A DNA stretch of 50,814 bases from an uncultured Coriobacteriales bacterium (GTDB lineage: Bacteria > Actinomycetota > Coriobacteriia > WRKU01 > JAENWW01). Location of the stretch: NCBI GenBank assembly GCA_937858655.1, contig CALLZE010000194.1, positions 1 to 50,814 of the forward strand, in the 5' to 3' direction. This document shows positions 1 to 19,988 of this stretch, in pieces (the stretch's first letter is position 1; every line of letters begins with the position of its first letter). Below the pieces are notes generated by a model. The model ran no database searches. It had not been told where the DNA came from and saw only the letters and a list, made by a program, of their open reading frames with translations. The position numbers and the translations under genes are program-made.

Positions 1-687
1 AAGTTCTTTGTTCACTTCAATGCGCAAGGCTTGAAATGTTTTCTTAGCAGGATGGCCTCCCGCACGACGTGCCGATGCGGGGATGGCTGCTTTAATGATG
101 TCTACGAGTTCATCACTTTGCGTGATGGCATGACGAGCGCGCGCAGTGCAAATAAACTTGGCAATGCGACTCGCCCACTTTTCTTCACCATATTCCCGAA
201 TAACACGCGTCAGTTCTTTCTCGGAATACGTGGCAAGAATATCTGCCGCGGTAGGTCCGGTTGAGTTCTGATCCATGCGCATATCAAGCGGACCGACGTC
301 TTTAAAGGTGAAGCCGCGCTCCGCGCTATCAATTTGTGGAGACGAAACGCCGAGGTCCATGAATATAGCGTCAGCGTAAGGAATGCGCGCTTTTGAAAGA
401 AGCTCATCAAGCTCTGAGAAATTTCCTTTGAGTAAAATGACTTCTTCATCAGTGCGTTGGTCGAGGTTGAGTGTGATGGTTGCTGCGTGAAGCGCCACGT
501 CATCTTGGTCAATACCAACAAGCGTGCCGCCGGGTGTGATTATGTCCGCAAACCTGCTCGAGTGTCCTGCTCCTCCGAGGGTGCAGTCAACAACAATTGA
601 TCCAGGTTTGAGGGCAAGGTGTTCTAAAACCTCGGCCAACATTACGGGAATGTGCTCGTATTCATCTGTCAAGTTTCGAGTGTTCAT
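1..687 (-). CDS. rsmH: 16S rRNA (cytosine1402-N4)-methyltransferase RsmH/MraW, C-terminally truncated by the window edge
   Basis: Absent from the ORF track because it runs off the window. My minus-strand translation from the ATG at 687 reads MNTRNLTDEYEHIPVMLAEVLEHLALKPGSIVVDCTLGGAGHS...DLGVSSPQIDSAERGF...FQALRIEVNKEL. It is in frame to nt 1, carries the RsmH SAM-binding and DLGVSSxQ motifs, and lies directly downstream of mraZ as in dcw clusters. Confidence 0.9.
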   Translation of the reverse strand, partial: MNTRNLTDEYEHIPVMLAEVLEHLALKPGSIVVDCTLGGAGHSSRFADIITPGGTLVGIDQDDVALHAATITLNLDQRTDEEVILLKGNFSELDELLSKARIPYADAIFMDLGVSSPQIDSAERGFTFKDVGPLDMRMDQNSTGPTAADILATYSEKELTRVIREYGEEKWASRIAKFICTARARHAITQSDELVDIIKAAIPASARRAGGHPAKKTFQALRIEVNKEL

Positions 688-18590: not shown

Positions 18591-18887
18591 CTATTCTGAA
18601 TCTCTTATGTCTTGCTCAATATCCTCGAGAGTAACCTCTTCGAGATTTTCTAGGTCGTCTGCATCATCCTCGGTGTCGCTTGACTCATCTTGAACTTCAC
18701 CATTTTCGGGGAGCAAGGCATCCCAGTCAGCCTGGTCAATAAGTTCAGTGCACTGATTCGCAAGGCGCACGCCTTCTTCAAGTAAATCGAGACTCTTCTC
18801 AAGAGAGATATCTTTTTTACGCACCTCGTCTACGAGGACGTCAAGACGCTCTTTGGCCTCGGCATATGAAAAAGTCTCTTGTGCCAT
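18591..18887 (-). CDS. xseB: Exodeoxyribonuclease VII small subunit with acidic C-terminal extension
   Basis: FSYAEAKERLDVLVDEVRKKDISLEKSLDLLEEGVRLANQCTELI is the XseB helical hairpin. The last ~40 aa are strongly acidic (DESSDTEDDADDLENLEE...). The start overlaps the nusB stop (TAATG). Confidence 0.85.
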   Translation of the reverse strand: MAQETFSYAEAKERLDVLVDEVRKKDISLEKSLDLLEEGVRLANQCTELIDQADWDALLPENGEVQDESSDTEDDADDLENLEEVTLEDIEQDIRDSE

Positions 18888-19648
18888 TACTCTTCAGCTC
18901 CCTGCTCCTGCTGCCCGCGTTCACGAGCAACCTTGCCAAGAATACCGTTAATAAACTTTGAAGAATCCTCGCCGCCATATTCTTTTGCAATACGAACGGC
19001 TTCATTGATTGCTACCGAGGTAGGAATGTCATCATTATAGAGAAGCTCCCACACCGCCATACGCAGAATCGTGCGATCGACCAAAGGCATGCGGCTGAGC
19101 GACCAATTTTCAGACGTCTGCTGCAAAATCTCGTCAATCTCCACCAGATGGTCCTCGACACCATAGCTCAACAAAGTGGCATAGGCATCAGGTGCACCCT
19201 CAAAACTTTCATAAAACTTGCGATACTCGCATGAAGCATAGTGCGCGCAGCGACAACGGTTCTTTGACCAATCGCCATCCTGATAAGGATACCCTTTTGG
19301 AGGACATTCCTTATGATCCATGTAAAAACGGCGACAGCGACACGTTGTCGCGCGACGGCAAGCCGCCCTTTTCTCAGTCGGCTGGAGCGACTCGTGAGGG
19401 CACTCGTAGTCAAGCGGCCACTCACCGAACTGCTCAAAATACTTATAAGGAGTGCATTCATCCATATAAGGACACTGGCACTCGTCGCGCATTGAGTTTT
19501 CAATTTCGTAATCGCCATGCTGTATTATTTTTGACAGCGGTTCACAAACAATTTCGCGTTGATACAGCAAACGAAGCGCGTAAATACGTGCATGCGCGCG
19601 AGGATTTTGCTCGGTGCGAGCTTTTTTATTAGTACTATGTGATTCCAT
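18887..19648 (-). CDS. nusB: Transcription antitermination factor NusB with a ~105-aa Cys-rich insertion
   Basis: ARIYALRLLYQ at the N-terminus and NWSLSRMPLVDRTILRMAVWELLY..DIP..VAINEAVRIAKEYGGEDSSKFINGILGKV at the C-terminus are canonical NusB. I place the start at MESHSTNKK (19648), because the asp23 stop is at 19659-19661. The track ORF starts at 19675. Confidence 0.85.
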   Translation of the reverse strand: MESHSTNKKARTEQNPRAHARIYALRLLYQREIVCEPLSKIIQHGDYEIENSMRDECQCPYMDECTPYKYFEQFGEWPLDYECPHESLQPTEKRAACRRATTCRCRRFYMDHKECPPKGYPYQDGDWSKNRCRCAHYASCEYRKFYESFEGAPDAYATLLSYGVEDHLVEIDEILQQTSENWSLSRMPLVDRTILRMAVWELLYNDDIPTSVAINEAVRIAKEYGGEDSSKFINGILGKVARERGQQEQGAEE

Positions 19649-19658
19649 GAATTCTTCT

Positions 19659-19988
19659 CTACTCTGCAAAAACAAGGGAGTCGATGAAGATGTCGATATG
19701 TACAGGGGTTACCCCAAGCTGCACTGAAAGCGCATCCGCAATTCCATTCTGAATTGCTTCACCTAACTCGCGCAATTTTGCGCCAAAAAATACCTGAACG
19801 TGAACAGAAATTTCGAGTTGTCCCTGCTCATTAGTTGTGATTTCTATACCGCGGCCACCCTGCGCTTTACGAAGCGTGGGAGCATAAATTGACGCAACAC
19901 CCTCAACACTGGTCGTTGCGATGCTTACGATAGTAGTAATAACATTGGGGGCTACGGTGAGCCCATCAAGAACTAATTTATCTGCCAT
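19659..19988 (-). CDS. Asp23/Gls24-family envelope stress protein
   Basis: LTVAPNVITTIVSIATTSVEGVASI...VHVQVFFGAKLRELGEAIQNGIADAL is typical Asp23. It sits immediately upstream of nusB, like yqhY in Bacillus. Confidence 0.85.
   Translation of the reverse strand: MADKLVLDGLTVAPNVITTIVSIATTSVEGVASIYAPTLRKAQGGRGIEITTNEQGQLEISVHVQVFFGAKLRELGEAIQNGIADALSVQLGVTPVHIDIFIDSLVFAE

Follow-up and report, generated by a model that had tools for sequence, protein, structure and literature searches.

The nusB gene on contig CALLZE010000194.1 of an uncultured Coriobacteriales bacterium (GenBank assembly GCA_937858655.1), a stretch of 50,814 nucleotides (nt) analysed at full length and referred to here as the window, encodes a NusB protein that carries a cysteine-rich domain of 106 residues inside its fold. 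This domain insertion is real, conserved and lineage-restricted; binding of a metal by its 11 invariant cysteines is likely, and a regulatory role is speculative. NusB, a small protein that assists RNA polymerase in completing rRNA, is among the most compact and uniform of bacterial transcription factors, and here this factor of an essential type keeps an 11-Cys module of this size under selection about as strong as that on the NusB core. The initial annotation of this DNA, made from the letters alone, had described a cysteine-rich stretch of about 105 amino acids (aa) within NusB, and translation of the interval (Table 1) agrees with that description, including the placement of the 11 cysteines in CQCPYMDEC, CRCRRFYMDHKEC and CRCAHYASC and of single ones in YEC and AAC.

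An invariant set of cysteines under purifying selection

A homologue search over 5.8 billion clustered proteins produced 243 matches among 432 candidates, and among the 120 matches listed at least 15 (P0002-P0016) are homologues of 223-272 aa, with 53-92% identity and 78-97% query coverage; the remaining matches among those listed cover at most 46% of the query. Loss of the cysteines among homologues had been named in advance as the outcome that would speak against a dedicated module, and the alignment gives the opposite result, with 11/11 insert Cys kept in 16/16 sequences (the window protein and P0002-P0016). The cysteines remain invariant even where insert identity between homologues falls to about 41%. 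A twelfth, non-conserved cysteine, C35, sits outside the insert (Cys numbering, C57 to C140 in the insert, refers to the 253-aa protein). In the same 16-sequence alignment no His of the insert is invariant, and the other invariant residues are, in the numbering of a longer 262-aa frame discussed below, P76, W86, D89, P93, R115, R116, Y118, K122, P126, G128, P130, Y151 and F158.

Averaged over sequence pairs, identity in the insert is 0.58, or 0.53 once its Cys columns are set aside; the core reaches 0.66 and the N-terminal helix region 0.50. Purifying selection acts on the insert much as it does on the core. Two loci with DNA at a distance suited to the estimate were compared, L004 from the second genome of the family (G001) and L023 on a Joint Genome Institute (JGI) contig, whose proteins are 87% identical; the ratio of nonsynonymous to synonymous substitution rates (dN/dS) came to 0.071 in the insert and 0.052 in the core, with 0.27 in the acidic C-terminal tail.

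The composition of the 106 residues (E13, Y11, C11, R10, P8, D7) fits the earlier description of an insert rich in Tyr and Arg; Asp, which had been named with them, is only moderate, and Glu is also abundant. Along the insert the Cys-to-Cys gaps run x1, x5, x17, x13, x5, x1, x9, x16, x1 and x5, and inspection of the sequence found no CxxC spacing anywhere in it. In the source genome as a whole Cys makes up 1.35% of residues (1226 open reading frames (ORFs) of at least 150 aa), and 11 Cys within 106 aa are reached by 12/1226 of these ORFs, nusB included. The other 11 comprise five 4Fe-4S dicluster proteins, four multihaem c-type cytochromes and two frames, apparently non-coding or spurious, that match no Pfam family. 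Because 9/11 of the other Cys-dense ORFs encode iron-sulfur (Fe-S) or haem proteins, a high Cys density marks cofactor binding in this genome, and since so few ORFs are equally dense and the 11 Cys are invariant in 16/16 homologues, a chance cluster of cysteines is excluded.

The possibility that the insert is an assembly or sequencing artefact, flagged for checking at the outset, is ruled out by independent data. In an independent run from 2016, a single 1546-nt contig covers 18800-19750 without a gap and with 2 differences, and 15 runs from at least 8 studies contain at least half of the sampled words of the DNA; the labels of runs with near-identical DNA are anaerobic digester, wastewater, sediment or plain metagenome. 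The 15 homologues, which come from metagenomes, one GTDB genome and the JGI contig carry the insert as well. With an insert dN/dS of 0.07 besides, both an artefact and a drifting low-complexity sequence are refuted, and we attach practically no probability to either. As to expression, a 239-nt metatranscriptome contig covers 19403-19641, from a type of run that may contain DNA, and a 261-nt contig covers 18909-19168, from a run guessed to be RNA in which DNA may likewise be present. Separately, one wastewater run holds several short alternative contigs for 19325-19411, with 0-2 differences and a higher summed depth, which suggests co-existing strains that vary in the middle of the insert.

The NusB fold and its RNA-contact residues are intact

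The PF01029 profile matches the protein with 117.5 bits against a gathering cut-off of 23.1 (E 7.1e-34) and aligns only to a C-terminal block of 96 residues (156-251 of the 262-aa ORF), corresponding to profile positions 38-133. An AlphaFold2 (AF2) model of the 253-aa protein was built on a 50-row alignment, and its predicted local distance difference test score (pLDDT) exceeds 90 in the core, with block means of 60-81 in the insert. Its helices comprise H16-34, alpha2 (H38-44) and alpha3 (H155-166), with the insert leaving the model between alpha2 and alpha3. A fold search against representative structures matched it to Mycobacterium tuberculosis NusB (1eyv_B; Z 20.3, root-mean-square deviation 1.9, 125/133 residues, model range 14..241), followed by Escherichia coli NusB from the NusB-S10 complex (3d3b_A; Z 19.2), Thermotoga maritima NusB (1tzt_A; Z 19.0) and Aquifex aeolicus NusB (Z 18.4). 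The structural alignments to NusB chains begin at model residue 13-14 and so include the N-terminal helix of the seven-helix fold. Since this helix joins with the C-terminal part in a single superposition on solved NusB structures, the insert is a true internal insertion.

The window protein thus shares with the solved NusB structures (E. coli 3D3B/1EY1, M. tuberculosis 1EYV, T. maritima 1TZT and A. aeolicus 3R2C/3R2D) the all-helical fold (Z 18-20), the C-terminal BoxA-contact motif and the status of a single-copy gene in the usual order accC-asp23-nusB-xseB-dxs. It differs from them in length, 253 aa compared with about 130-160, and in the module itself, which is absent from all solved chains matched.

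In the available text of PMC3177189 the BoxA surface of NusB is described as alpha6, E117/D118, alpha7 around F122, the N-terminus and the Y69-G78 loop; this text does not list the alpha2-alpha3 region as a BoxA-contact element. The E. coli residues E117, D118, S119, K121 and F122 are identical in the window NusB (phmmer alignment with 1ey1_A and 3d3b_A). For the pocket that receives NusE (S10), passages of PMC9820117 list E. coli Y18, E75 and E81. E81 aligns with Asp (phmmer), and Y18 falls in the helix that HMMER leaves unaligned, where Tyr29 may be its equivalent. Across insert-bearing and insert-less NusB, 24 core positions are invariant. With the NusB core and its BoxA-contact residues unchanged, the protein should therefore still pair with S10 on boxA while rRNA is being transcribed.

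The S10 of the source genome is ordinary, with 102 aa, 95% identity to G001 S10 and 85-92% identity to that of sister family f2. As a separate observation, S10 has Glu at residue 16 (motif D-H-E) in 16/16 Coriobacteriia aligned (source-genome S10 at L025:1301-1606). We assume that this residue is the counterpart of Aquifex NusE-R16, which stacks on BoxA U8 according to the available part of PMC3177189.

The source genome (G000; 1.39 Mb in 225 contigs, 96% complete) contains two PF01029 matches, the window nusB and a 460-aa frame on another contig whose length fits RsmB/Fmu-type enzymes, which have an N-domain that is NusB-like in the fold search. The window gene is the only NusB of this genome.

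Among the genomes sampled the long insert occurs in one family, with a short loop in its sisters

The initial annotation had called for a comparison with orthologues to see whether the insert is lineage-specific, and among the GTDB genomes sampled the long form occurs only in the family of the window. This family has two members among GTDB species genomes, both with the long insert; the NusB of the second, G001, aligns with query residues 2-258 at 66% identity. A scan at the level of the order found a match in 14/15 genomes, the one without being 59% complete. In the two other families of the order, the 12 matches start at about query residue 142, except one that starts at 187 at a contig end. 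In a class-wide sample 396/401 genomes have a match, and a best E below 1e-100 is reached only in G000 and G001, the next value being 2.0e-39.

At the site of the insert, the NusB of family f2 has a short loop with the pattern C-x3-C-x5..8-C, and that of family f3 a short loop with C-x12-C-x6-C or C-x3-C-x4-CC; the f3 loops continue after their last Cys with EYRxFF, much as unit 3 does. Other Coriobacteriia NusB of 144 aa have neither a loop nor Cys at this position. The short Cys-loop proteins (P0017-P0020, P0025 and P0055; loci L006-L016) resemble the long forms in sharing the insertion site, with 3-4 Cys, in the alignment of their last two Cys and CEYRxFF tail with unit 3, and in falling into one clade with them. 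They are different in being only about 170-190 aa long, with about 35 extra residues, and in having neither units 1 and 2 nor the W-P-x-D-Y-x-C-P and C-P-P-x-G-Y-P motifs.

The initial annotation had grouped the cysteines into three similar units, of which the likeness stands for two. Unit 1 (ECxCPYxDxCxPxxYFExFG) and unit 3 (RCRCxHYxxCEYRxFYxSF) match at 93.9% hhalign probability (E 1.6e-7, 23 columns), scores that Cys-rich profiles may inflate; unit 2 reaches only 2-3% against either. Because units 1 and 3 are alike, duplication of the small motif seen in the sister families probably gave rise to part of the module. Long DNA repeats were absent from the insert, where only three two-copy matches of 13-17 nt were found, which may be chance. 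A foreign origin was considered and rejected, the GC content of the insert (0.49-0.55) being like that of its flanks.

A NusB tree of 47 rows and 119 columns, with the loop columns removed, places all Cys-loop NusB, long and short, in one clade (support 100/99) on a stem of 0.77 changes per column; an earlier tree that kept some loop columns was weaker. Judged by this long stem, the NusB core changed fast when the Cys loop arose. Within the clade the branching is a polytomy, in which family f3 joins the long forms P0014/P0015 at 93/86, and monophyly of the 18 long-insert rows is not rejected by the approximately unbiased test (p 0.16). The trees are compatible both with growth of a short loop into the long insert and with reduction of a long insert to a short loop. 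One class thus contains NusB without a loop, NusB with a loop of 3-4 Cys and NusB with the 11-Cys domain, a series that offers a clean case for following the growth of a domain within an old protein.

The module has no detectable relatives

An insert profile built from three sequences read from DNA was searched against 1.84 billion representative proteins and recovered the insert-bearing NusB cluster (E 2.8e-58). Its second and only other match, P0122 (E 4e-4), proved to be a translated tandem repeat and was rejected as a relative. A feature search of the ESM Atlas with residues 46-150 gave a best score of 0.79, below the tool's stated chance level, and a scan of genome contigs with the insert returned 8 pattern matches, none of them confirmed. 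By these searches the module is an orphan domain, with no detectable relative among the 1.84 billion representative proteins. Full-text literature searches, which did not cover subscription papers, found no report of a cysteine-rich or cofactor-binding NusB.

The cysteine pattern was also compared with known sites. CxC-rich sites made up of Cys alone are typical of polynuclear zinc-thiolate clusters such as those of metallothionein, the tesmin/TSO1 CXC domain and the pre-SET Zn3Cys9 cluster. The insert is like these CxC-type domains in its repeated CxC and in its Cys-only ligand set without invariant His, and its count of 11 equals that of the metallothionein alpha-domain (M4Cys11). Unlike them, it is bacterial, lies within NusB, is rich in aromatic residues and Pro and gives no profile match, and its Cys density is much lower than that of metallothionein. 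Hsp33 (CxC...CxxC) and the anti-sigma factors RsrA/ZAS, in which metal release gates activity, offer a second likeness, that of a putative Cys-only metal site in a cytoplasmic regulator; the insert differs from them in having no CxxC or HxxxCxxC element and no profile match. The knuckles of zinc ribbons and treble clefs (CxxC / CPxC) are not present in the insert.

A proposed metal-thiolate module on a working NusB and the alternatives to it

We propose that the gene encodes the cell's working NusB with a Cys-ligated metal-binding module, probably for zinc, grown from the alpha2-alpha3 loop, and we consider this proposal about evenly poised between right and wrong. For a cytoplasmic protein in which an anaerobe keeps 11 Cys invariant, a metal-binding module is the most economical reading. 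A CxC/x5/x9 spacing of Cys alone is the style of polynuclear metal-thiolate clusters and not of ferredoxin or radical-SAM sites. Zinc, or another metal of thiolate clusters, is preferred because of this spacing and because CxxC, a ferredoxin motif and a match to an Fe-S profile are all lacking. On the molecular level, a compact Cys-ligated module would emerge from the alpha2-alpha3 loop of an otherwise normal NusB and would hold most probably zinc, whether in a multi-metal thiolate cluster or spread over about three Cys sites. The module is probably, at least in part, a duplicated small motif (CxC-x5-C followed by an aromatic tail) whose short form sits at the same site in the sister families, and its conserved Arg/Tyr/Trp/Pro surface would probably give NusB an extra contact, to the leader RNA or to a member of the antitermination complex.

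Several observations weigh against this proposal. Eleven is an odd number of ligands, with no invariant His to serve as a twelfth. A Pfam scan of three insert sequences at E up to 10 returned only DUF6565 (E 0.19) and thus no known zinc family, and the best hit of a sequence profile search of the PDB was at E 0.41. Folded alone on 18 rows, the insert reached a pLDDT of 54.6 and a predicted template modelling score of 0.34, and a fold search with this poor model gave 2/48161 chains at Z of at least 2 (best Z 2.4). AF2 confidence in the insert is therefore moderate in context and poor alone, and a defined fold of the insert is not demonstrated by these models. Furthermore, the N-terminal helix is aligned to NusB by structure only and not by sequence, E. 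coli E75 of the NusE pocket aligns with Ser (phmmer), and an Fe-S cluster is a live alternative, because the anaerobe is rich in Fe-S proteins.

In that alternative the cysteines would hold an Fe-S cluster or act as a redox-labile or metal-sensing thiolate, and NusB would be a switch whose capacity to enter the rRNA antitermination complex changes on oxidation or loss of metal, tying ribosome synthesis to redox or iron status, which we regard as possible but somewhat improbable. The 11 invariant Cys would suit such a site, as would the digester, wastewater and sediment origin of runs with near-identical DNA and a genome rich in 4Fe-4S and multihaem proteins. Cys followed by Pro is common at Fe-S ligands and occurs here at C83-P and C115-P-P, and the CxC-x5-C units resemble part of the SoxR 2Fe-2S motif. 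However, the first Cys of a SoxR-type site (Cx2CxCx5C), three residues before CxC, is absent in both units, and the insert has neither CxxC nor CxxCxxC spacing and hence no Fer4 motif (CxxCxxCxxxC(P)); a non-canonical cluster is still compatible with this. With hits accepted up to E 10, the insert matches neither Fer4 nor another Fe-S profile, although the same library detects five Fer4 proteins in the genome, and the regulatory part of the idea is speculative. A related and more elaborate proposal, a metalloregulated antitermination factor in which the occupancy or oxidation of a polynuclear thiolate or non-canonical Fe-S site gates the nucleation of the rRNA antitermination/chaperone complex by NusB, seems unlikely to us.

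The module might also bind no metal and serve as a spacer or as a protein- or RNA-binding loop, its Cys being kept for packing, reversible disulfides or covalent modification. That no known metal-binding family was matched and that AF2 confidence is low for the insert alone would be accounted for, and the many invariant aromatic, Pro and Arg residues could form a fold or an interface unaided. Yet 11 Cys that stay invariant through such divergence of the insert are unusual except as ligands, the other Cys-dense real proteins of the genome are all cofactor binders, and an anaerobe's cytoplasm is an improbable place for stable disulfides, so that we think a metal-free loop quite unlikely. A more radical view is that the protein is no longer NusB and that its scaffold now serves a new function built around the Cys module. 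The long stem of the Cys-loop clade and the Ser in place of E75 point that way; against this, the gene is the sole NusB of its nearly complete genome, its core dN/dS is 0.05, its BoxA-contact residues match E. coli exactly, the 24 core positions shared with insert-less NusB are invariant and the housekeeping synteny is kept. We judge this loss of the NusB role highly improbable.

Were the module to bind metal, it would be a new metal-binding fold and the first hint of a metal centre at the NusB/S10/boxA step of rRNA synthesis, and if the metalloregulated proposal held, ribosome production would be tied directly to metal or redox status through a fold without known relatives. The reach of either finding would be limited by a lineage that is narrow and uncultured.

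We also considered, and rejected, the idea that the module compensates for a missing SuhB. PF00459 (SuhB/inositol-monophosphatase) was found in 0/6 of the order's genomes with a completeness of at least 90% (G000, G001, G003, G004, G009 and G013). By family of Coriobacteriia it was found in 0/16 genomes of f4, 0/6 of f6, 0/15 of f7 and 0/1 of f16, and in 21/21 of f5; it was also found in 14/14 control genomes. Since it is equally missing from families with an ordinary NusB, the loss of SuhB is not specific to the insert, and rRNA antitermination in the lineages that lack PF00459 must work without a SuhB homologue. Rho is present in 5/5 genomes checked.

Gene start and neighbourhood

Table 1. 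Positions of nusB, its parts and its neighbours in the window
Feature	Coordinates	Strand	Description
nusB coding sequence	18887..19648	-	253 aa from ATG 19648; stop 18887-18889
Cys-rich insert	19196..19513	-	106 residues (46-151), DYEIENSM...ESFEG; 11 invariant Cys
NusB helices alpha1-alpha2	19517..19603	-	Residues 16-44, PRAHARIYALRLLYQREIVCEPLSKIIQH, 5' of the insert; from AF2 helices and structural alignment
Unit 1	19454..19480	-	C57-x-C59-x5-C65 (CQCPYMDEC); invariant 16/16; resembles unit 3
Single Cys C83	19400..19402	-	Invariant; within W-P-x-D-Y-x-C-P motif
Unit 2	19304..19360	-	C97-x5-C103-x-C105-x9-C115 (CRRATTCRCRRFYMDHKEC), then invariant PP-G-Y-P motif
Unit 3	19229..19255	-	C132-x-C134-x5-C140 (CRCAHYASC), then EYRKFYESF; last two Cys and CEYRxF[FY] tail also in short loops of a sister family
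NusB core helices alpha3-alpha7	18923..19210	-	PF01029 positions 38-133; holds conserved E-D-S-x-K-F BoxA-contact motif
asp23 (Asp23-family gene)	19659..19988	-	Upstream neighbour of nusB; conserved synteny
xseB (exonuclease VII small subunit)	18591..18887	-	Downstream neighbour; start abuts the nusB stop

A longer frame (18887..19675, minus strand) of 262 aa is obtained when reading starts from an in-frame TTG at 19675, 27 nt 5' of the ATG. The added stretch (19649-19675, minus strand) overlaps the 3' end of asp23, and its nine extra residues are present in no homologue. We take the 253-aa form as the protein because the homologues begin at ATG 19648 and this ATG lies 10 nt past the asp23 stop. 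The 262-aa protein may be the one annotated by ORF callers, and the homologues favour the 253-aa form.

The gene order accC-asp23-nusB-xseB-dxs is the same in the window and on the JGI contig (L023), and the G001 locus (L004) has the same neighbours as the window, with no separate xseB ORF listed at a 90-aa cut-off; the synteny of nusB is kept in 3/3 loci compared (window, L023 and L004). On the JGI contig, accC is preceded by a 619-aa carboxylase-type gene with a C-terminal biotinyl/lipoyl-like end (L023:281-2140, plus strand).

Elsewhere in the source genome lie the four multihaem c-type cytochrome genes: L057 and L058 (C77:1163-3219), L060 (C203:2540-3721) and L061 (C133:17304-19358). They belong to the Cytochrome_C7, MtrC/MtrF-like and NapC/NirT families, and they occur in a 1.39-Mb Coriobacteriia genome from digester or wastewater habitats, where they are a possible sign of extracellular or anaerobic respiratory electron transfer.

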